Numbered from the stretch's first letter, positions 21,482 through 31,368 are shown. The stretch is 64,000 nt of DNA from Bacillota bacterium (GCA_050942825.1 JBMNOA010000004.1:357-64356), one strand, 5' to 3'. Translations and numbers: made by a program. Notes: generated from the letters alone by a model not told the origin.

Positions 21482-23692
21482 CTACTCCTTGGCTTGTTGC
21501 TTTGTTTTATTTGATTTGGTGGCTCTGGTTTTTTTTGCGACTGAGGTTGTACTGTCTTTCCGTTTGGACTTTTTAGGTTTAGCCGCTTTGGCTTTTTTTG
21601 TAGCGACATCATCTTTTTTCTTACTTTCTTTTTGATTGCCGGGGCAATCTTTATTGGGACAAACAATCTGCGTTTTGCCACCCCTAAATGTTTTCTGGCT
21701 CAATTGTGTACCGCAAAGGCTACAAGCCTCAGCAATAGGAAGATCCCAGGATACATACTTGCAATCAGGATATTTTTCGCAACCAAAAAAAACCCTCCCT
21801 GAGCGGCTCTTCCTTTGTACGATGCGTCCGCCGCAAGCCATGCAGGTAATATCCGTAGGCTTGATGATAGGTTTGGTATTACGGCATTCCGGGAAGCCGC
21901 TGCAAGCTAAAAAGCGGCCATACTTACCCATACGGTAAACCATAGGCTTGCCACATAATTCACAAATATCCCCGCTTTCTTCCGGGGCAATATTGATTTT
22001 TTCCATTAACTTTTCGGCGTTGGCCAAGGTCGGGGCAAAGTGCTCGTAAAATTGTGATAAAACGGCATCCCATTGCAAGTTGCCTTCTTCTACCATATCC
22101 AATTGATTTTCCATTTCGGCCGTAAAATCTATATCAATAATATTAGTAAAATATTCTTTGAGTAAATCAACTACCACCCGGCCTAATTCAGTGGGGAAAA
22201 ATTGCTTTTCTTCCTTGACCACATAACCACGTGCCAAAATCGTATCAACTATCGGCGCATAGGTGCTAGGTCTGCCTATACCTAATTCCTCTAGAGTTTT
22301 TACCAAAGAGGCTTCCGTATAGCGCGGTGGCGGCTGCGTGAAATGTTGATTAGGAGATAAAGCCACCAAAGACAGCTTTTGTTCATTTTTTACTGGAGCC
22401 AGTACGCCTTCCTCTTCTTTATCGGTCTCAGCTTTGCTTTCCACATAGACCTGGCGAAAACCAGCAAACCGCAAACTACGGCCGCTGGCTCTGAAAAGGC
22501 AGTTACCGGCAGCCACTTCCACACTAGTAACATCCCAAATAGCAGAGCTCGTTTGGCTAGCCATAAAACGCTCCCAGATCAGCTTATAAAGCTTATATTG
22601 CTGCGGGGTCAAATATTGTTTGAGAGAAATTGGAGTGCGCTCCACCGAAGTAGGACGAATAGCCTCATGAGCGTTCTGCACTTTTCCCTTACCCTTAAAT
22701 ACGTTAGGCTTGGCGGGGATAAATTCCTCACCGTATCTTTCGGCAATATAAGATCGGGCGGCAGTTTGCGCGGCGTCAGAAATACGCACGGAATCGGTAC
22801 GCATATAACTGATCAAACCTACAACCTGACCACCGATATTGATGCCTTCATAAAGCTGCTGTGCTATTTGCATGATTTTTTTCGCTGTCATGCCGGAAAT
22901 ATTTCTGGAAGCCACCTGCTGCAGACTGCTGGTTGTAAAAGGGGGTTGGGGGTTTTCTTTCTTCTCTTTGGTTTGCAGAGCGCATACTATATATTCTTTA
23001 TCAGCCAAATAGGCAATGATGGCATCTATTTCTTCCTGACTGTGTATATTGGCTTTCTTGCCGTCAATTTTATTTAGCTGAGCTTGCAGAATCCCTTTGC
23101 CGGTATCCAGCTCAGCTAACAAGGTCCAATATTCTTCAGGCACAAAAGCTTTGATTTCGTCTTCTCTGTCGCAGATTAAACGCACCGTCACGGATTGCAC
23201 GCGACCGGCGGAAAGGCCTTTTTTGACCTTTTTCCATAACAAGGGGCTTATTTTATAACCTACCAACCTATCCAAGATCCTTCTGGCCTGCTGAGCTTCC
23301 ACTCTATCCATATCGATAGGATGCGGGTTTTTTACGGCTTCCTTTACCGCTTGATCGGTGATCTCATTAAATTCAATGCGGCAATCTTCTTCCTGAACTT
23401 TTAAATATTGTTGTAAATGCCAGGCAATGGCTTCCCCTTCACGGTCAGGGTCACTGGCCAGAAGAATACGGTCGGTCTTTTTAGCTTCTTCTTTAAGCGA
23501 CTTTATGGTATTGCCTTTACCACGGATAGTGATATATTTGGGCACAAAGCCTTCCTCCACATTCACGCCGAGATCGCTTTTGGGCAAGTCCCTGATATGC
23601 CCCATAGATGATTTTACGGTATAGTTTTTACCTAATATTTTTTCGATTGTTTTAGCTTTAGTAGGAGATTCTACAACAACTAATGTTTTCAT
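21482..23692 (-). CDS. topA: DNA topoisomerase I with Zn ribbons and a basic tail
   Basis: VVESPTKAKTI, DPDREGE, SAGRVQS, SYMRTDS; three C4 ribbons. Confidence 0.98.
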   Translation of the reverse strand: MKTLVVVESPTKAKTIEKILGKNYTVKSSMGHIRDLPKSDLGVNVEEGFVPKYITIRGKGNTIKSLKEEAKKTDRILLASDPDREGEAIAWHLQQYLKVQEEDCRIEFNEITDQAVKEAVKNPHPIDMDRVEAQQARRILDRLVGYKISPLLWKKVKKGLSAGRVQSVTVRLICDREDEIKAFVPEEYWTLLAELDTGKGILQAQLNKIDGKKANIHSQEEIDAIIAYLADKEYIVCALQTKEKKENPQPPFTTSSLQQVASRNISGMTAKKIMQIAQQLYEGINIGGQVVGLISYMRTDSVRISDAAQTAARSYIAERYGEEFIPAKPNVFKGKGKVQNAHEAIRPTSVERTPISLKQYLTPQQYKLYKLIWERFMASQTSSAIWDVTSVEVAAGNCLFRASGRSLRFAGFRQVYVESKAETDKEEEGVLAPVKNEQKLSLVALSPNQHFTQPPPRYTEASLVKTLEELGIGRPSTYAPIVDTILARGYVVKEEKQFFPTELGRVVVDLLKEYFTNIIDIDFTAEMENQLDMVEEGNLQWDAVLSQFYEHFAPTLANAEKLMEKINIAPEESGDICELCGKPMVYRMGKYGRFLACSGFPECRNTKPIIKPTDITCMACGGRIVQRKSRSGRVFFGCEKYPDCKYVSWDLPIAEACSLCGTQLSQKTFRGGKTQIVCPNKDCPGNQKESKKKDDVATKKAKAAKPKKSKRKDSTTSVAKKTRATKSNKTKQQAKE

Positions 23693-23736
23693 TGGGACCT
23701 CCGTTTCAATTTTGCTGGTTCTGATAATTTATTAAT

Positions 23737-24825
23737 CTATAATTCATGAACGGCCAAAATATAATATTTGCCGGGCAATTGCTTAATCAAACCTCTGATT
23801 TCCCACATAGTAAGCATAGCGGCCAATCTCTGTGCAGGCAAATCCAGCTTGTCTAATAAAGAATCAAAATGAATCGGTTCTGCCATCATGTCCAGTATAT
23901 CCTTTTCCTCTTTACTGACTGTGACAGGCTTTTTTTTCTTATGCTTTATCATCCTAGACTCAGGAAGATAATCTTGCCAAATATCTTGGGCATTAGTAAC
24001 GACTTTGGCTCCCTGAGCAAACAAAGCATTAGTGGCGGAGCTCATTTTACTGGTGATGAGTCCGGGAACAGAAAATACATCCCTGCCCTGCTCCATAGCG
24101 CGGTCAACAGTCAATAAAGTACCGCTCCTTTTACCAGCCTCCACTACAACCACACCTTTGGATAAACCGCTGATGATTCTGTTACGCATAGGGAAATGAG
24201 CAGCCAATGGAGGGGAGCCCAAGGGCAATTCACTGATCACAGCACCGTTTGCAATAATTTGTTGAAAAAGATTGCCATTTTCAGGCGGATATATAATATC
24301 AATACCGGAGCCTATAACTGCTATGGTTTTGCCGCCGGCCTCAATGGCAGCCTGATGACAAATAGAATCTATACCTCTGGCCATCCCGCTGACCACCCAG
24401 ATGCCCTGCATGGCTAGATCTCTGGCTAAAATCTGCGCCACCTGTCTACCGTAAGGAGTGGGCCGTCGTGTGCCGATCATGGCTACAGTGATATCAGCAG
24501 GCTCAGGTAATTGACCATAATAAAATAATAATAAAGGTGGATCATAGATATTGGCCAACAGCTCAGGGTAAGCGGGATCATTCAGCAGCAACAAGCTGGC
24601 ACCGGATGCCAAAAACTTTTCGTATACGGCCTCTACATCCACTTCTTTTTTGGCCGCTGCCAAGGTATTGGCTATAGAGGGAGTCAATCCCGGTATCATA
24701 CGCCAATTGGAGCAATCATGCCAAGCCATAGCAGCATCATAACCATAGTATTCCAAAATATTTTTTAACCGGCTCGGTCCCATATTATTGATACTGTGCA
24801 AGGCCAACAGATATGCATTTGACAA
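23737..24825 (-). CDS. dprA: DNA processing protein DprA
   Basis: IGTRRPTPYG, VSGMARGIDS, FPMRNRIISG, EAGKRSGT; C-terminal winged helix. Confidence 0.95.
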   Translation of the reverse strand: MSNAYLLALHSINNMGPSRLKNILEYYGYDAAMAWHDCSNWRMIPGLTPSIANTLAAAKKEVDVEAVYEKFLASGASLLLLNDPAYPELLANIYDPPLLLFYYGQLPEPADITVAMIGTRRPTPYGRQVAQILARDLAMQGIWVVSGMARGIDSICHQAAIEAGGKTIAVIGSGIDIIYPPENGNLFQQIIANGAVISELPLGSPPLAAHFPMRNRIISGLSKGVVVVEAGKRSGTLLTVDRAMEQGRDVFSVPGLITSKMSSATNALFAQGAKVVTNAQDIWQDYLPESRMIKHKKKKPVTVSKEEKDILDMMAEPIHFDSLLDKLDLPAQRLAAMLTMWEIRGLIKQLPGKYYILAVHEL

Positions 24826-24846
24826 CGATCAGCCCTCCTTGCCAAG

Positions 24847-26019
24847 CTATTTTTTACTGCCTTTAAAACCGCCGCCCTGCGCCAAGATATTAGAAGCATA
24901 GGAAAAGATCATTTTTTCTTTTTTGCGGCTTCTTTTAAGTGCAAGCCGGATCAAATCATCTAATAATTGGCTAAATGTCTTACCTGTCGGTTCCCAGAGA
25001 TAAAATGACAGGGAACCGGGGATAGTATTTATTTCATTAACAAAAATTTCATTGCTATCGGCATTCATAAGAAAATCTATGCGGCAAACACCATATTCAT
25101 CCAAAGCCACAAACGCCCTGCGGGCATAATCCTGGATCTTTTGAGTAATAGACTCGTCAAGATCAGCGGGAATACGCCTTTGGGCGCCGCTCATACCCTT
25201 GGTGCCTCCACACAGATATTTATCACCATAGGATAAAAATTTTGCTGCAGCTATCGGCTCCTCACAGACCGAGGTCTCCTGATTTTCCGGACAGCCCAGA
25301 ACAGAGCAATTAATCTCTCTCAAAGGGTTAATAAATTTCTCTATTAAAATCCTATTAGCAAAGCTGCCTGCCAAAGATACGGCCTCTAATAATTCTTCTA
25401 TATTGTCTACAGCCGTTACACCAATAGAAGAACCTAAATCGGCCGGTTTGACTATCATGGGATAAGAAATTTTTTCCTCTAATATCTTACATATTTGCTC
25501 TTGATCATCATGCCATTGATGCATATAAAACCAATGATAATCGGGAGTTGGCAAACCTGCCTCTTTAAGAACAGCTTTCATAATGATTTTATCCATACCG
25601 CAAGCAGAACCCAAAACAGCGGGTCCGGTATAAGGCACTCCGCTTAATTCTAATAAACCCTGCAGGCAGCCGTCCTCTCCATGAGTTCCGTGGATGACAG
25701 GCATGACTACATCAATTTTATGGGAAAAGGTTTTTTTAAACATACCCGTTGCTTCTGTGCCGACTATCATAAAGTCATGATGATTTTGAGAAAAATATAT
25801 TTTTTTACAAGTAGATAATAGCATATTTATATCACGGTAGTTTCTGATATCCAGCAAGTTATCACCGGTATACCAAATACCCTGCTTGGAGATATAAAGC
25901 GGCACCGGCTCATATTTTTCTTTATCCAACGCTCTGATAGCTTGCAAAGCAGAAATAATAGAAACCTCATGTTCCACACTGCGGCCGCCATAAGCAACTC
26001 CTACTTGGATTTTTTGCAT
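24847..26019 (-). CDS. ddl: D-alanine--D-alanine ligase family protein
   Basis: YGGRSVEHEVS, HGTHGEDG, KPADLGSSIG, omega loop FLSYGDKY, NEINTIPG. Confidence 0.92.
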   Translation of the reverse strand: MQKIQVGVAYGGRSVEHEVSIISALQAIRALDKEKYEPVPLYISKQGIWYTGDNLLDIRNYRDINMLLSTCKKIYFSQNHHDFMIVGTEATGMFKKTFSHKIDVVMPVIHGTHGEDGCLQGLLELSGVPYTGPAVLGSACGMDKIIMKAVLKEAGLPTPDYHWFYMHQWHDDQEQICKILEEKISYPMIVKPADLGSSIGVTAVDNIEELLEAVSLAGSFANRILIEKFINPLREINCSVLGCPENQETSVCEEPIAAAKFLSYGDKYLCGGTKGMSGAQRRIPADLDESITQKIQDYARRAFVALDEYGVCRIDFLMNADSNEIFVNEINTIPGSLSFYLWEPTGKTFSQLLDDLIRLALKRSRKKEKMIFSYASNILAQGGGFKGSKK

Positions 26020-26059
26020 ACTAATCTCTCCTTAAAATTATACTAATACAGTAATTTAC

Positions 26060-27679
26060 TTATTCATTATAGGTATCGGGCAAATCATTTTCAAACAAAA
26101 CTATATCACCGACTGTAGCTATTTGCGATAATTTATGGCTGGCATCTGTCAAATCAGCGGCTACATAATATTGTTGGCAAGGATAAGAAACCTCCACCAG
26201 CCCATCTTGTAATGGTTGGCTATGCTTTTTGCCCACTAATATGATATAATCGCACACCTGGGCTGCCTGCATAGCAAAAGACTTATTTAATTGATACTGT
26301 TTTTCACCTAATTCCACCATACCGGGTGTCACGATAATTTTCTTACCGGCCCTAAAACAAGCCAGCACCTCCAATGCGGCGGCAGCACCTTGAGGATTGG
26401 AGTTAAAAGCGTCATCTATTACGTTGAAGCCATGCGGGTTAGATAAAAATTGCAGTCTATGGGGGATCGGCTGCAATCGTTTTACGGCTTTGGCCGCTTG
26501 TTTGAGAGATAAACCTAATTGATGAGCGGTAGCCACAGCGGCTAGAATATTATAAATATTATGTCTGCCTAAAAGCAATGTAACAAATTTTTCTTCTTCT
26601 CCATTGGCAACATGTATAGTAAAACTGCTGCCTTGTGAATCATAGCTGATATCATCAGCATAATAATCCCAAGCGGCATCTAATCCGTAACTGATGATTT
26701 TGCACTTATATTGCGCAGCTTTTTTTCTGATATTCTCATCATCAAAATTCAAGACAGCAAAACCGGCATCGGGGATAGCGTCAATCAATTCAAATTTTGT
26801 ATTGATGATATTCTCCAAACTTCCGAATGTTTCTAAATGCTGTGGACCGATAGCTGTAATGATCCCCACTTTAGGGTTGACTAGTTGGCAGATCTCCGCT
26901 ACATCGCCTTTTTGTTTAGCACCGATCTCCGCTACAAACATCTCATGAGTACTACGTAAATTTTCCCTGATCACCCTGGTGATGCCCATGGGCGTATTAT
27001 AACTGGCAGGAGTAACCAAAGTCATAAATTCCTCCGACAACACCTCTCCCAGAATAAATTTGCAGCTGGTTTTGCCGTAGCTGCCGGTAACGGCGATGGA
27101 GGTCAGAAAAGGCATACTGCGGATAATATTTTTGGCTTCATTGAGGAATTTGTTATTAATCGCTTTTTCCACCGGTATCAACAATGTGTTGGCCAAAAGC
27201 ATAGGAGCAAAAGTAAATATGCCCAACAGCAAAAATACCACTAACACTAATAACATATGACCACCGAAAATCAAGGTGGCAAATAAAACCGCACTAATCA
27301 CTACAAGCAAGATCAGTGATAAAAGATAAAGCCTTTTGGCCCTGGCGGTCATCACGAGAGGCTTTTTTTGCTGCGGTTTTTTATAGGACAGAAATAGCAG
27401 CAGATATACTACAAAAGATATGATGGCAAAAACAAACGGATTGACCGTAAAAAGCCATATTAACACAAGCGCAGCAGGTATAAAGTCCCGCTTTTTAAAA
27501 ACCCGACCTTTTTGTTGCGTGTACCAACGCAAATAGCGTTCGTTACGATAGGAATTAAGCTGGAACATATGCAATTCATGTCGTAATTTTTTACTATTAT
27601 ATAGAATAAAAAACACAAAGAACGCCAGTAAGAAAATTATTAAATATATATTAAATGTAGGATAAACCAAGTTTATCAT
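26060..27679 (-). CDS. murF: MurF-like ligase with an N-terminal multi-TM anchor
   Basis: About 170-aa hydrophobic N-terminus, then VTGSYGKTS, SYNTPMG, DDAFNSNP, TPGMVELG. Confidence 0.85.
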   Translation of the reverse strand: MINLVYPTFNIYLIIFLLAFFVFFILYNSKKLRHELHMFQLNSYRNERYLRWYTQQKGRVFKKRDFIPAALVLIWLFTVNPFVFAIISFVVYLLLFLSYKKPQQKKPLVMTARAKRLYLLSLILLVVISAVLFATLIFGGHMLLVLVVFLLLGIFTFAPMLLANTLLIPVEKAINNKFLNEAKNIIRSMPFLTSIAVTGSYGKTSCKFILGEVLSEEFMTLVTPASYNTPMGITRVIRENLRSTHEMFVAEIGAKQKGDVAEICQLVNPKVGIITAIGPQHLETFGSLENIINTKFELIDAIPDAGFAVLNFDDENIRKKAAQYKCKIISYGLDAAWDYYADDISYDSQGSSFTIHVANGEEEKFVTLLLGRHNIYNILAAVATAHQLGLSLKQAAKAVKRLQPIPHRLQFLSNPHGFNVIDDAFNSNPQGAAAALEVLACFRAGKKIIVTPGMVELGEKQYQLNKSFAMQAAQVCDYIILVGKKHSQPLQDGLVEVSYPCQQYYVAADLTDASHKLSQIATVGDIVLFENDLPDTYNE

Positions 27680-27692
27680 GATATCTCCTCGA

Positions 27693-28478
27693 TTATTCAG
27701 CAAACTTATCATCAGCTAAAAAAGTATCTATAATATGCAAAAACTGTGGCAATCGTTCCAAATAAGAATAGTGGCCCGCGCCTTCCAAAACCACCAAACC
27801 GCTATCAGGTATCAATTTTTCCATTAGCTGCCCGTCAGCTAACGGGGTAGCAGTGTCCAAATCCCCCCACACTAAGAGCGTCGAGGCAGTAATATGTGGC
27901 AAATAAGGCTTGAGGTCCTCATTGACCACCTTGACAAAAATCTGTCTCATAACCCCCTCGGCCTGCTTGTAATCACTGGAAGCGCTGTTTTTTTGCCAGT
28001 AGGCCAGTGCCTGATCTTTTTTTTTCCTCAACCCCGGCAAAGAAAAAAATTTTTTAGCCGCTTTATAACTGTACACTTTGAGATAATAATTAATACTTCT
28101 TTTGGGCAATATTCCGGCGCTGTCGATAAGCACCATTTTAGAGGGAATTTTTTTAGCGCCCAACAGGATAGCCACACGCCCGCCAAAAGAATGGCCCATA
28201 ATAAGCGGATCTTTGATGTGCTGCAGTTCTATAAAATCTTCTATAAGAGCAGCATAATCATGCACTGACCAAGCAGCCTCAGGAGCAGGTGTCAAGCCGA
28301 AACCGGGAAAATCAATATTATATACGTTAAAATATTGTGCCAACTCACGTGCTACAGGCTCAAAAGCAGAGCTGTCCACTCCCCAACCATGCAATAAAAT
28401 AAGATCTTTGCCTTCACCTGCTTGTTTATAAAAAAGCTTTTGCCCTTTGATCTCTTTTTCTTTAAGCTTGAATTCCAT
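27693..28478 (-). CDS. Alpha/beta hydrolase (Ser-Asp-His esterase type)
   Basis: HGWG oxyanion loop, GHSFGG nucleophile, WGDLDTATP, GAGHYSY. Confidence 0.9.
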   Translation of the reverse strand: MEFKLKEKEIKGQKLFYKQAGEGKDLILLHGWGVDSSAFEPVARELAQYFNVYNIDFPGFGLTPAPEAAWSVHDYAALIEDFIELQHIKDPLIMGHSFGGRVAILLGAKKIPSKMVLIDSAGILPKRSINYYLKVYSYKAAKKFFSLPGLRKKKDQALAYWQKNSASSDYKQAEGVMRQIFVKVVNEDLKPYLPHITASTLLVWGDLDTATPLADGQLMEKLIPDSGLVVLEGAGHYSYLERLPQFLHIIDTFLADDKFAE

Positions 28479-28558
28479 ATTAAATCCTTTTAAGAGTACT
28501 TTTAAACAATTATATTTTTTATATAGCCAAAAATGTTAAAAATTATAAACGCTTTTGG

Positions 28559-28587
28559 TAATTCTCTTTATTATAACCAATTCCTTC
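28559..28587 (-). promoter_or_regulatory. SigH-like promoter overlapping a sigma-A -10, upstream of the hydrolase gene
   Basis: GAAGGAATT-11-AGAGAATTA matches RNAGGAWWW-N11/12-RNNGAATWW; TATAAT at 28570-28575 lies in the spacer. Confidence 0.55.
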
Positions 28588-28601
28588 TTATACACAAAAA
28601 T

Positions 28602-28639
28602 AAAAAAGTAGTTCCCTGAACAAAGAGCTACTTTTTTTT
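28602..28639 (-). terminator. Terminator after comM
   Basis: AAAAAAGTAGTTC...GAGCTACTTTTTT imperfect hairpin with A/T runs on both sides. Confidence 0.65.
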
Positions 28640-28653
28640 ACTTTTCCTGGCAC

Positions 28654-30183
28654 TTACAGCATTTTTCTATCCAAATTTCTATACTGGATAGCTTCGGCAA
28701 TATGTTCTATGCCGATCTGGTCTGCGGCGGCCAAATCAGCAATAGTCCTGGCCACTTTTAAAATCCTGTCATGAGAGCGGGCGCTCAGTTGCAGTTGATT
28801 GAACACCTGACGCATCATTTCGCTTCCCTCATCATCCAATTGACAATACTTTTCTAAATCTCTTTTGTTCATCATCGCATTACAGGTAAGACCGGCTGGC
28901 TTAAGTCGCTCACTTTGCCTAGTCCTGGCAGCTTCCACCCTTTTTTTTATGATAGTCGAGCTTTCGCTTGATTTTGATGAGGAAATCTCGCCATATTTAA
29001 TTCTGGGCACTTCTATATGTAGATCGATCCTATCCCAAAGCGGGCCTGATATCTTAGCTAAATATTTTTTTATGGCGTATTCACTGCAAGTACATTCTTT
29101 GAGGTTGTCCCCATAATAACCGCAAGGGCAAGGATTAAGAGCCCCTACCAACTGAAAAGCAGCGGGAAAAGCCACCCTGCCGCTGACCCTTGATACAACG
29201 ACCGTACGATCCTCCAAAGGTTGTCTTAAAGCTTCCAACACATCACGAGCAAATTCTGGCATTTCATCCAAAAAGAGGATGCCATGACTGGCCAGGCTGA
29301 CTTCGCCGGGCTTGGGGTGGGCGCCGCCGCCGATGATACTGGCGGAAGATGCGCCATGATGAGGAGCCCTGAAGGGCCTTACGGTAATCAGAGGCTGGTC
29401 CTGCGGCAATAGGCCGGCCACGCTAAATATTTTGGTCACTTCCATACTTTCCGCTAAGGTTAAATCAGGCATAATAGAGGGCAATCTTCTGGCCAGCATA
29501 GTTTTTCCGGAACCAGGAGGCCCGATCAAAAGGATATTATGCCCTCCCGCAGCAGCAATCTCCAAAGCTCTTTTGACACCTTCCTGGCCTTTGACATCAC
29601 CCATATCATAAATATCCGTTCCCTGAGCATGGGCAAAAAGTTTATCAGTATCCACAGTAACAGGCTGAACATGCTGCTCACCCTGTAAAATAGGCAATAA
29701 CCCTTTGAGGTGCGAAGCTTCATAATAATTCATATTACCAGCAATAGATGCTTCTCGAGCATTTTCCACAGGCAAAAAGAATTTGTCGTATAATTTAGAA
29801 AGGCAAGTGGCCATCGCCAAAGCACCGGAAACGGGACGTATTGCACCTTCTAAAGATAATTCGCCCACAAAAGCACTGTTTAGTAAATTGCTATCGGATA
29901 TTTGGCCAGTAGCAGCCAATATACCAATAGCAATTGGTAAGTCAAAAAGAGCACCTTCTTTTTTTATTGCGGCTGGGGCCAAATTAACGGTAATACGCCG
30001 CAAGGGAAATTCCAAATTAGAATTTCTGATAGCGGCTCTTACTCTTTCCTTACTCTCTTTAACCGACGCGTCGGGCAGGCCCACGATATCAAAAGCAGGT
30101 AAGCCCGCGCTCACATCTACTTCTACTTTTACCGGGTAGCCATCTACACCCAAAACAGCACAACTATTGATGATTGCTAGCAA
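28654..30183 (-). CDS. comM: ComM/YifB Mg-chelatase-like AAA+ ATPase
   Basis: IVGLPDASVKESKERV, GPPGSGKTMLA, RAPHH, LDEMPEF, NPCPCG, LSARSHDRILKVARTIADL; TTG start inferred. Confidence 0.93.
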   Translation of the reverse strand: MLAIINSCAVLGVDGYPVKVEVDVSAGLPAFDIVGLPDASVKESKERVRAAIRNSNLEFPLRRITVNLAPAAIKKEGALFDLPIAIGILAATGQISDSNLLNSAFVGELSLEGAIRPVSGALAMATCLSKLYDKFFLPVENAREASIAGNMNYYEASHLKGLLPILQGEQHVQPVTVDTDKLFAHAQGTDIYDMGDVKGQEGVKRALEIAAAGGHNILLIGPPGSGKTMLARRLPSIMPDLTLAESMEVTKIFSVAGLLPQDQPLITVRPFRAPHHGASSASIIGGGAHPKPGEVSLASHGILFLDEMPEFARDVLEALRQPLEDRTVVVSRVSGRVAFPAAFQLVGALNPCPCGYYGDNLKECTCSEYAIKKYLAKISGPLWDRIDLHIEVPRIKYGEISSSKSSESSTIIKKRVEAARTRQSERLKPAGLTCNAMMNKRDLEKYCQLDDEGSEMMRQVFNQLQLSARSHDRILKVARTIADLAAADQIGIEHIAEAIQYRNLDRKML

Positions 30184-30226
30184 AAAATCACCCTTTTCCG
30201 GTACCATGTTTTGCCTATTCCAATAT

Positions 30227-30255
30227 ATTTTCGACGCTCAAATACTTTTCCCTGC
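30227..30255 (-). promoter_or_regulatory. SigH-like promoter of comM
   Basis: GCAGGGAAA-11-GTCGAAAAT; AGGG...GTCGAA architecture like the B. subtilis spo0A Ps promoter. Confidence 0.5.
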
Positions 30256-30265
30256 CCACAAAAGA

Positions 30266-30299
30266 AAAAGCCCCTTATCACTAGTACTGTAGGGGCTTG
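30266..30299 (-). terminator. Terminator after the nuclease gene
   Basis: AAGCCCCT...AGGGGCTT stem followed by a U-rich tract on the minus strand. Confidence 0.65.
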
Positions 30300-30330
30300 A
30301 TAATTTACCTATAATAGTAACGGCTCATCT

Positions 30331-31368
30331 CTATTTTGGATCACATACACTACAGGCGGTATAACCTTTTTGCCGGGCCTCTTCGATAGTAGCAAAGAAA
30401 ATCCTATTCTCTTCTTTTATTTTCAGCGCATATGCGCATTCAGAATCATGAAATTTATCGGAAGACAGACTGCCCATATATGTGCCGCTTTTTGTAGGCA
30501 TATTGTTTTTCTCACCAGAATTACTAGCCTGGTTGCCGTACGTTTCCCAGATGCCGATGCCCTTGGCTTGAGCGGTTTTTTCCAGAGCAATAAAATCATC
30601 AACATATTTGACATTAGGTGGAAAAGTAGCTACCGCTGCATGGCCTTGTTCCAATAGTATTTTATTAAACATTTTCCCGTTTAAATACACATATGCCAAA
30701 AGTCTGTTATATTTATCTCTTTTTTGCACATCAAATTCCAGCTCTACCTCTTCGCCTTGCAATTGGTTTTTGGTGAAATCGGCGGCGATTTTGCCATACG
30801 GCACATTTCTTTGCTCATCAGGGTGTACACTTTCGGGAGTATCTATACCGATCAAACGGACTTTTTCGGGTGTTCCGTTATAGTCGATCTCTATGGTGTC
30901 GCCATCAATGACCTTGATTATTTTATATGTTTTGCTAGCGGCCGCTGTCTCAGTCTTGATTATAATATCTTTGCCGCTCCAGTCAACCTGGCAATCCAAG
31001 CTCTCGGCCACAAAACGCAGTGGCACCATAATTCTGTTATTGATGGTTTTAGCGGCAATATCCAGCTCTATCTTAGTATTGTTTTTATAAGCATATTTAT
31101 TATTTAAGTGAATGCTGACAGTAGTGTTAGCTTTATTTATCAAAACAGTTTTTGTTGGGGCATGCCAAGAAACATCTGCGCCGATAGCCTCAAAGACGGC
31201 TCGCATGGGTACTAAGGTAGTTTGCGCCTCCAGCTGGGGCGGTGTATCGAATTTCAGCTTCTGTCCATCTACATAAACATTAATACCATTTGAGGCTGAT
31301 ATCACTACAGAAAAGCTCAAAATCAGTATTACTATCAAGCCTATTATGAGAAGCGGTTTCTTTTTCAT
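30331..31368 (-). CDS. Secreted thermonuclease (SNase) with a copper-amine-oxidase N-terminal-like domain and a C-terminal Cys/His metal-binding domain
   Basis: Signal peptide MKKKPLLIIG...; TLVPMRAVFEAIGA/IMVPLRFVAESL; VIDGDT, VRLIGIDTPE, DKYNRLLAYV; KFHDSEC...GYTACSVC. Confidence 0.85.
   Translation of the reverse strand: MKKKPLLIIGLIVILILSFSVVISASNGINVYVDGQKLKFDTPPQLEAQTTLVPMRAVFEAIGADVSWHAPTKTVLINKANTTVSIHLNNKYAYKNNTKIELDIAAKTINNRIMVPLRFVAESLDCQVDWSGKDIIIKTETAAASKTYKIIKVIDGDTIEIDYNGTPEKVRLIGIDTPESVHPDEQRNVPYGKIAADFTKNQLQGEEVELEFDVQKRDKYNRLLAYVYLNGKMFNKILLEQGHAAVATFPPNVKYVDDFIALEKTAQAKGIGIWETYGNQASNSGEKNNMPTKSGTYMGSLSSDKFHDSECAYALKIKEENRIFFATIEEARQKGYTACSVCDPK

Follow-up and report, generated by a model that had tools for sequence, protein, structure and literature searches.

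The 64,000-nucleotide stretch of DNA analyzed here (the window; Bacillota bacterium, GCA_050942825.1 JBMNOA010000004.1:357-64356) carries, at positions 24847-28478 of the minus strand, three co-oriented and tightly packed genes that encode an EstV-like hydrolase, a MurF-like ligase, and a D-alanine--D-alanine ligase (Ddl). A reading of this stretch from its sequence alone (the sequence-only reading) had singled out the trio, pointing to an intact Ser-Asp-His triad in the hydrolase, to some four or five transmembrane (TM) helices in place of the usual N-terminal domain of MurF, and to an omega-loop Tyr (SYGDKY) in Ddl of the kind found in D-Ala-D-Ala ligases; its coordinates and each of these features hold. 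We find that the membrane-type ligase, here called TM-MurF, replaces the canonical MurF in the window genome, where it is the only candidate to fill the MurF step. The trio is a Helicobacter-type module of ddl, an EstV-like hydrolase, and TM-MurF, since it has all three features by which this module is defined: a homologous membrane domain in place of MurF domain 1, a hydrolase gene beside murF, and a ddl gene in the cluster. Judging from these comparisons, we consider it likely that the trio is a housekeeping module that completes the stem peptide, with TM-MurF at the membrane and the hydrolase as an obligate component.

The body of TM-MurF is that of a MurF-type ligase. Pfam places Mur_ligase_M (PF08245; 158.6 bits) at residues 208-396 and Mur_ligase_C (PF02875; 52.8 bits) at residues 418-540, both counted on the full open reading frame (ORF), whereas the residue numbers given below for the membrane domain are counted from a second ATG at 27679. 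The first ATG of the ORF would create a 20-nucleotide (nt) overlap with the hydrolase gene. The second is preceded at 7 nt by a GAGGAG ribosome-binding sequence and for this reason is probably the true start, giving a protein of 539 residues and removing the overlap. MurF ranks above MurE, MurD, and MurC in both NCBIfam and Foldseek comparisons, and the top Foldseek structures are those of MurF (4qf5, 3zl8, 4cvm, and 1gg4), over about 360 columns that correspond to the ligase body only. A P-loop (TGSYGKTS) and the C-terminal domain motifs DDAFNSNP and TPGMVELG are in place. Canonical MurF (EC 6.3.2.10; PDB 1GG4, 4QF5, 4CVM, and 3ZL8) thus has its central and C-terminal domains, P-loop, motifs, fold, and presumably its position in the pathway in common with TM-MurF, which retains the part of the enzyme that deals with ATP and D-Ala-D-Ala.

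In contrast, domain 1, the part of about 80 to 100 residues that holds the UDP end in canonical MurF, is not present, and a 190-residue membrane domain of five TM helices forms the N terminus instead. The PDB MurF sequences align with TM-MurF only from query residue 192, and TIGR01143 matches at model positions 74-403 only, with 238.4 bits against a cut-off of 288.6. This shortfall corresponds to the missing domain 1, and TM-MurF is therefore not a full member of TIGR01143. Two further differences from canonical MurF are its obligate hydrolase and its location outside the dcw cluster; a third is a C-terminal acidic tail, ENDLPDTYNE, which is invariant in TM-MurFs and is represented by ANDAPNYI at the same place in Helicobacter pylori.

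The first 190 or so residues of TM-MurF contain three long hydrophobic stretches with polar loops between them, and no Pfam family matches this region. In the AlphaFold model, which was built on a 138-sequence alignment (pLDDT 94.4, pTM 0.89), they form TM helices at residues 11-41, 63-77, 81-98, 112-139, and 142-187 (the last with a kink at 155-156) and two short helices within residues 46-60. Loops 35-62 and 99-113 carry charges of +4 and +5, respectively, and the N terminus and two short turns are neutral. By the positive-inside rule, these positive loops predict an N-out, C-in topology with both charged loops in the cytoplasm. All strongly conserved residues of the domain are found in the first loop (H37, M38, Q40, N42, Y44, R48, and W52), in the second loop (K105, K106, L108, V109, T111, R113, R116, and L117), or at the cytoplasmic end of TM5 (P169 and E171), whereas the helices are conserved only as hydrophobic segments. 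The motifs MFQLNSY and KKPLVMTARAKRL, which had been quoted in the sequence-only reading, are both present and occupy the most conserved positions. According to the model, then, TM-MurF is embedded in the membrane and exposes a conserved patch at the cytoplasmic face.

The genome to which the window belongs is a 1.87-Mb assembly of 140 contigs that is 97% complete. A profile search of this genome returned TM-MurF as the sole protein with MurF as its best match and the Ddl of the trio as the only true Ddl; the second, soluble murF or ddl that the sequence-only reading had proposed to look for was found in neither case. The remaining Mur ligases, MurE, MurD, and MurC, are all encoded on another contig (C40), in a dcw cluster (L233:62-11984) with the order spoVD-murE-mraY-murD-ftsW/spoVE-murG-murC-murB-murA. 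The gap between murE and mraY in this cluster is 27 nt, with no murF at its usual site, and the mraY product is an ordinary member of TIGR00445 (333 bits). With no other murF or ddl found in the genome, the trio would have to serve as the housekeeping route, barring a canonical gene in the missing 3%. The stem-peptide assembly unit envisaged earlier therefore stands as a conserved module but not as an extra unit, since it appears to be the housekeeping route of the organism.

The hydrolase matches Abhydrolase_6 (84.5 bits) and Abhydrolase_1 (76 bits) in Pfam. Its top NCBIfam family is the EstV family lipase NF058580, at 141.3 bits against an equivalog cut-off of 300; a relationship to EstV is thus apparent, but the protein does not fall within the curated equivalog. 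BioH-, PcaD-, and MenH-type models come next, at 78 bits or less. The triad consists of S97 (GHSFGG), D208 (WGxxDTATP), and H236, and these residues, like an HGWG oxyanion motif, do not vary among 21 aligned orthologues. No signal peptide, TM segment, or hydrophobic segment was found in the protein. Its helical lid (residues 121-175) has a net charge of +9, as opposed to -10 for the rest of the protein. The AlphaFold model (pLDDT 92.4) finds its best fold match in PlaF (6i8w), a membrane phospholipase A; generic esterases, BioH, and ABHD6 rank next. PlaF, however, has a TM helix, which the hydrolase lacks. With BioH and the family V carboxylesterases the hydrolase has in common the HGWG motif, Ser/Asp/His at near-BioH positions, and a basic helical lid, and it matches TIGR01738 over its full length (78 bits), but its BioH- and PlaF-type scores are far below the family cut-offs and its gene is linked to those for MurF and Ddl instead of genes for biotin or lipid functions.

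The third protein is a D-Ala-D-Ala ligase. It exceeds the cut-offs of the D-Ala-D-Ala ligase models, with 336 bits for NF002528 and 288 bits for TIGR01205, whereas Van models give 135 to 223 bits against cut-offs of 495 to 775. Its sequence FLSYGDKYL aligns with the omega-loop FYAYDTKY of solved DdlA-type enzymes, such that the Lys-Tyr pair is kept, followed by an insertion of five to six residues. NF002528 was rejected as a module-specific marker for Ddl, being unspecific (224 of 401 genomes of the phylum exceed its cut-off). On the usual Ddl model of the phylum, the Ddls of the module score lower than others (1e-86 to 1e-108 versus mostly 1e-113 to 1e-145).

Table 1. Features of the trio and of the region upstream of it, in window positions
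Feature	Position	Strand	Basis
EstV-like alpha/beta serine hydrolase, 261 aa	27693..28478	-	Pfam, NCBIfam, AlphaFold
MurF-like ORF	26060..27712	-	First ATG 27712
TM-MurF membrane domain, residues 1-190 from start 27679	27110..27679	-	AlphaFold, profile
MurF-type ligase body of TM-MurF	26060..27109	-	Pfam, PDB MurF alignment, Foldseek
D-alanine--D-alanine ligase, DdlA-like, 390 aa	24847..26019	-	NCBIfam, omega-loop alignment
Intergenic region, comM/yifB to hydrolase gene	28479..28653	-	Read by eye

The distribution of the two MurF types was assessed in an even sample of 401 genomes from the phylum of the window. Canonical MurF scored above the TIGR01143 cut-off in 372 of them. Six further genomes had a MurF below the cut-off and no TM domain; they were ruled out as exceptions, as their genes are canonical murF genes that are split, truncated, or cut by contig ends. 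A profile of the TM domain matched 22 genomes spanning 13 families, none of which had a canonical MurF, so that no genome in the sample carried both types. The hydrolase profile gave 164 to 359 bits in exactly these 22 genomes, and the next best genome reached 131 bits. The co-occurrence of TM-MurF and hydrolase that the sequence-only reading had put up for scrutiny is therefore perfect in this sample, with an orthologue of the hydrolase in 22/22 TM-MurF genomes versus 0/379 others, including some 378 genomes with canonical MurF. The hydrolase gene adjoins TM-murF in 20 of the 22; in one of the other two the pair is split over two contig ends, and in the second the genes are 4.3 kb apart. If the genomes were independent, such a pattern would arise by chance with a probability of about 1e-36. 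As they are related, the real weight lies on repeated switches within families: each of four families (f74, f90, f106, and f128) has some genera of the TM type and others of the canonical type, and the hydrolase invariably follows the TM type. Two genomes of the phylum (G208 and G229, 100% and 97% complete, respectively) showed neither a MurF match at E <= 1e-40 nor a TM domain; G229 nonetheless has a strong Ddl (465 bits).

Beyond this sample, more than 7,800 full-length relatives of TM-MurF (500 to 560 residues) are present in the protein collection, where they are labeled simply MurF; they come from Clostridia metagenome-assembled genomes (MAGs) and halophilic Bacilli. The TM-domain profile matched 2,559 cluster representatives. 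In the best 150 of these 2,559 matches, the domain is N-terminal in proteins of 500 to 560 residues or in shorter ones, presumably fragments. Fusions of hydrolase and TM-MurF, or other architectures with the TM domain, were encountered neither in these best 150 of 2,559 matches nor in the 80 loci described next.

We compared 80 TM-MurF loci from species-representative genomes of four or more phyla, including Oscillospiraceae, Lachnospiraceae, Tissierellia, Peptoniphilus, and Christensenella as well as Pseudalkalibacillus, Aquibacillus, Gracilibacillus, Bacteroidales, and Poribacteria. The hydrolase gene is upstream of TM-murF in 75/80 loci. Three of the remaining five are cut by contig ends, and the other two genomes have the orthologue on another contig (360 and 338 bits). 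Ddl is encoded directly downstream of TM-murF in 73/80. Clustering of all flanking ORFs from these loci yielded no fourth conserved gene, the next commonest neighbor being present in 11/80; the conserved unit is the trio only, in keeping with the three-gene module of the sequence-only reading. In a tree of the 80 TM-MurFs, the Bacteroidales (support 99), the Poribacteria (100), and the Bacilli (100) each form one monophyletic group that is nested within Clostridial branches. This is compatible with transfers long ago, after which the gene was passed on vertically in a stable manner, as might be expected for a housekeeping gene. In Poribacteria (L037:8990-12892), hydrolase, TM-murF, and ddl lie directly upstream of mraY and ftsW, and the trio occupies the murF place of a dcw-like cluster. 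An ORF for a VanX/DdpX-like D-Ala-D-Ala dipeptidase lies just 3' of the module ddl in 4/80 loci, one of them in Pseudalkalibacillus sp. A8 (L018:9086-9811).

Canonical MurF was looked for in 20 genomes of the 80-locus set and was not found in 18 of them. The other two, a Mediannikovella-like Clostridiales bacterium (mt11) and Sporosalibacterium faouarense (G009 and G013), have a canonical MurF (402 to 418 bits) alongside TM-MurF and the hydrolase. Four Bacteroidales genomes (G006, G007, G011, and G016) contain the TM-MurF trio together with a chimera of about 830 residues, MurF'-Alr, that matches TIGR01143 over its full length (268 to 281 bits); they have no ordinary MurF. The MurF'-Alr chimera is described in PMC13726279, and in these taxa the "MurFA" of that paper may be of the membrane type.

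The closest known counterpart of the trio is found in Helicobacter and Campylobacter. H. pylori ddlA-estV-murF (HP0738-HP0740) and Campylobacter jejuni Cj0798c/Cj0796c/Cj0795c encode the same three proteins as the window, albeit in H. pylori in the order ddl-hydrolase-murF rather than hydrolase-murF-ddl. Helicobacter genomes were fetched via their 16S signature. In H. pylori HUP-B14, the sole MurF match starts at TIGR01143 position 62, within an ORF of 493 residues. The N terminus of this protein is hydrophobic and contains NDKPLVFTPRVKRF, the counterpart of KKPLVMTARAKRL, and the motif KKPLVxTxRxKR is common to both proteins. When the TM-domain profile was compared with this N terminus by hhalign, a match with 98% probability (E 1.7e-13) was obtained that covers loop 2, TM4-5, and the linker; in its first half, the domain has diverged too far to be aligned. 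The H. pylori estV gene, for a protein of 241 residues, overlaps the murF start, and ddl is just upstream, with all three genes co-oriented, as the sequence-only reading had said of HP0738-HP0740. The three proteins are 27 to 31% identical to those of the window, and EstV of H. pylori is without the GSxDY lid motif. By these sequence comparisons, the H. pylori cluster is the same module, with a membrane-anchored MurF that had escaped the sequence-only reading. Helicobacter pullorum (G422) gave no TIGR01143 or hydrolase match at 1e-20, unlike the other four Helicobacter genomes, which may reflect more diverged genes or an assembly gap.

Published work on these organisms bears on several of the points above. 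MurF of H. pylori has been stated to have "four N-terminal transmembrane domains" (PMC9448923, citing Blair et al. 2018) and is handled as an inner membrane protein (PMC9507126, PMC9448923). It is essential and copurifies with Csd5, CcmA, and Csd7 (PMC9507126), partners that are specific to Helicobacter. The H. pylori wall is rich in pentapeptide (PMC7012605), and a MurF of the TM type would therefore make ordinary D-Ala-D-Ala termini. Both murF and ddl have been listed among the essential genes of C. jejuni (PMC3229698). In this organism, the hydrolase gene Cj0796c is located beside murF (Cj0795c), with ddl (Cj0798c) just upstream; deletion attempts were unsuccessful, and its overexpression led to filamentous cells in about 1/10 of transformants (PMC5530802). 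This is the nearest that published evidence comes to a cell wall role for the esterase, for which none has been shown, as the sequence-only reading had remarked. The literature on UDP-MurNAc-pentapeptide pools in H. pylori yielded nothing decisive, and in our search we found no paper that deals with the loss of domain 1, with the hydrolase as a universal partner, or with canonical murF being displaced.

How might the module work? In the scheme that we favor, Ddl would make D-Ala-D-Ala, which TM-MurF would add to MurNAc-L-Ala-D-Glu-mDAP at the cytoplasmic face of the membrane, beside MraY. The five-helix domain would serve as both anchor and scaffold, and the two basic and aromatic cytoplasmic loops, together with the end of TM5, may substitute for domain 1 in holding the diphosphate/nucleotide end of the precursor. 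As to the acceptor, we lean toward UDP-MurNAc-tripeptide, because canonical murF has been displaced repeatedly within families, which calls for a plug-compatible enzyme, and because MraY is ordinary and carriers make normal pentapeptide walls. A lipid-linked tripeptide, which the sequence-only reading had also considered, seems a rather improbable acceptor, though one that could be accommodated because the loop patch sits at the place expected for the lipid I pyrophosphate.

The hydrolase is an obligate and probably catalytically active partner of TM-MurF. It would be a functional subunit because it tracks the TM type of MurF rather than Ddl and keeps its triad in all lineages, and likewise because it combines a cytoplasmic location with a cationic lid and, in C. 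jejuni, is probably essential. Possibly, this cytoplasmic protein docks via its cationic lid at the membrane face or on TM-MurF itself. For its reaction, we tentatively suggest, by analogy, a supporting step of the BioH or GatD kind, in which a small ester or amide is cleaved on an anionic substrate that is either required or released by TM-MurF. A structural or substrate-presenting role is less likely, and we give no better chance to a function as a lipid esterase.

Weighing against the housekeeping interpretation as a whole are several observations. The window genome is a MAG of 140 contigs, and a canonical murF could sit in its missing 3%. The loop patch at the membrane interface suits the pyrophosphate of lipid I/II as well as it suits UDP. 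Simple isofunctionality of TM-MurF with canonical MurF leaves the requirement for the hydrolase unaccounted for, and the two genomes with both MurF types (G009 and G013) indicate that the forms may not be fully equivalent. In addition, the hydrolase remains under the EstV equivalog cut-off and MurF under that of TIGR01143.

One alternative is a membrane-level route, in which TM-MurF, devoid of UDP recognition, would act after MraY on undecaprenyl-diphosphate-linked MurNAc-tripeptide (lipid I/II) with the hydrolase as catalytic partner. The domain that binds the UDP end in canonical MurF is wholly absent, the conserved Lys, Arg, and aromatic residues are placed precisely where membrane and cytoplasm meet, and the top fold match of the hydrolase is a membrane phospholipase. 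There is also a precedent: MurT is a homologue of the Mur ligases without the N-domain that acts on lipid II together with the triad hydrolase GatD. Still, the lipid II isoglutamine synthase MurT-GatD resembles the window pair in logic only, as a ligase without nucleotide-binding N-domain plus a separate hydrolase with a nucleophile-His triad. DUF1727 forms the C-domain of MurT, which is without TM helices; GatD is a glutaminase whereas the window partner is an alpha/beta hydrolase; and MurT models score only 23 to 33 bits on TM-MurF against a cut-off of 800, which places it outside this system. Moreover, the repeated displacement of murF within families is easiest to envisage with the same soluble substrate, requiring no acceptance of a tripeptide by MraY; MraY of the window genome is an ordinary enzyme; and the TM helices themselves are not conserved. 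We therefore regard the membrane-level route as unlikely. The same holds for its fullest form, a two-protein membrane machine in which TM-MurF would use a MurNAc-tripeptide that is linked to lipid diphosphate or presented by MraY, with a hydrolase step coupled to ligation as in GatD-MurT; if true, peptidoglycan precursors would be finished in these lineages by a second route that textbooks do not describe.

The hydrolase might instead, as the sequence-only reading had suggested, proofread the work of Ddl or MurF by hydrolyzing D-Ala-D-Lac, esters of D-Ala, or termini that were wrongly ligated. Such a task would suit an enzyme with an esterase-type triad whose gene, in all lineages, adjoins ddl and murF or lies between them, and EstV of H. 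pylori is reportedly a short-chain esterase. We nevertheless consider editing improbable: the hydrolase covaries with TM-MurF and not with Ddl, being absent from the canonical-MurF genomes that do have Ddl, and the Tyr signature of the module Ddl is that of ligases which make D-Ala-D-Ala cleanly. Nor would one expect an editing enzyme to be essential, yet deletion failed in C. jejuni (PMC5530802). Further removed is an accessory or resistance-type function of the trio, whether in a Van-like alternative stem terminus or as a sporulation-specific paralogue. Glycopeptide resistance islands typically have self-contained ddl and murF-like clusters, which the trio recalls, and the occurrence of both MurF types in G009 and G013 and of a VanX-like dipeptidase behind a few of the trios could be taken in the same sense. 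Yet the module holds the only murF and ddl in the window genome and most carriers and is inherited stably within orders, its Ddl is of the D-Ala-D-Ala type with the Lys-Tyr pair kept, and vanH, vanX, and vanRS are missing from the window locus, which is not a VanA/VanB-type cluster. Such a function is thus largely refuted and very unlikely. Least of all do we credit the idea that the hydrolase is a general esterase with no tie to its neighbors beyond a common operon. It would explain the generic fold and family matches to esterases, C-C hydrolases, and BioH-like proteins, but it is refuted, barring a sampling artifact, by the phyletic pattern across 13 families, by an adjacency kept from Clostridia to Helicobacter, and by retention of the orthologue even where it is not adjacent.

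Upstream of the hydrolase gene, the intergenic region toward comM/yifB contains, at the comM/yifB end, a terminator-like hairpin with a T-run (~28596-28640; fold -11.8 kcal/mol), three TATAAT boxes (28570-28575, 28542-28547, and 28509-28514), and an AAAGGA ribosome-binding sequence for the hydrolase gene (28485-28490). These elements were recognized by eye, weak evidence by which the trio transcription unit probably starts in this region; a consensus scan of the same interval listed neither a promoter nor a terminator. On the other side, in the interval 23737-24846, dprA begins with a TTG 22 nt past the ddl stop, preceded by an AAGGAGG box, and is followed by topA. This arrangement suggests a transcription unit of the hydrolase gene, murF, and ddl, possibly extending into dprA and topA. 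The window stretch, from a bioreactor metagenome, was matched in two runs, both of metagenomic DNA, and these hold no RNA evidence for cotranscription of the trio. Among the 80 loci, comM and dprA-topA flank the module again in the two closest relatives (L016 and L017) only, and no Rfam families or tandem repeats were found in 23000-30500. The spoVD- and spoVE-type genes and the mDAP-type MurE of the dcw cluster on contig C40 suggest that the source organism is of a spore-forming Clostridia type.

In summary, the kind of module described here was already known and in part noted in print, while its mechanism is unexplained. The window adds one more clear-cut member, in which canonical murF has been fully replaced. 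Its carriers comprise, besides the window bacterium, many gut Clostridia, Bacteroidales, some Bacilli, Poribacteria, and Campylobacterota, and thus include the pathogens H. pylori and C. jejuni and large parts of the gut microbiota. MurF is an essential enzyme and a drug target that textbooks describe as soluble, and its substrate-holding domain has been swapped in the 2,559 sequence clusters that carry the membrane domain. Establishing what the hydrolase does, and whether the precursor is UDP- or lipid-linked, would fill a gap in peptidoglycan biochemistry and could define a narrow-spectrum target.

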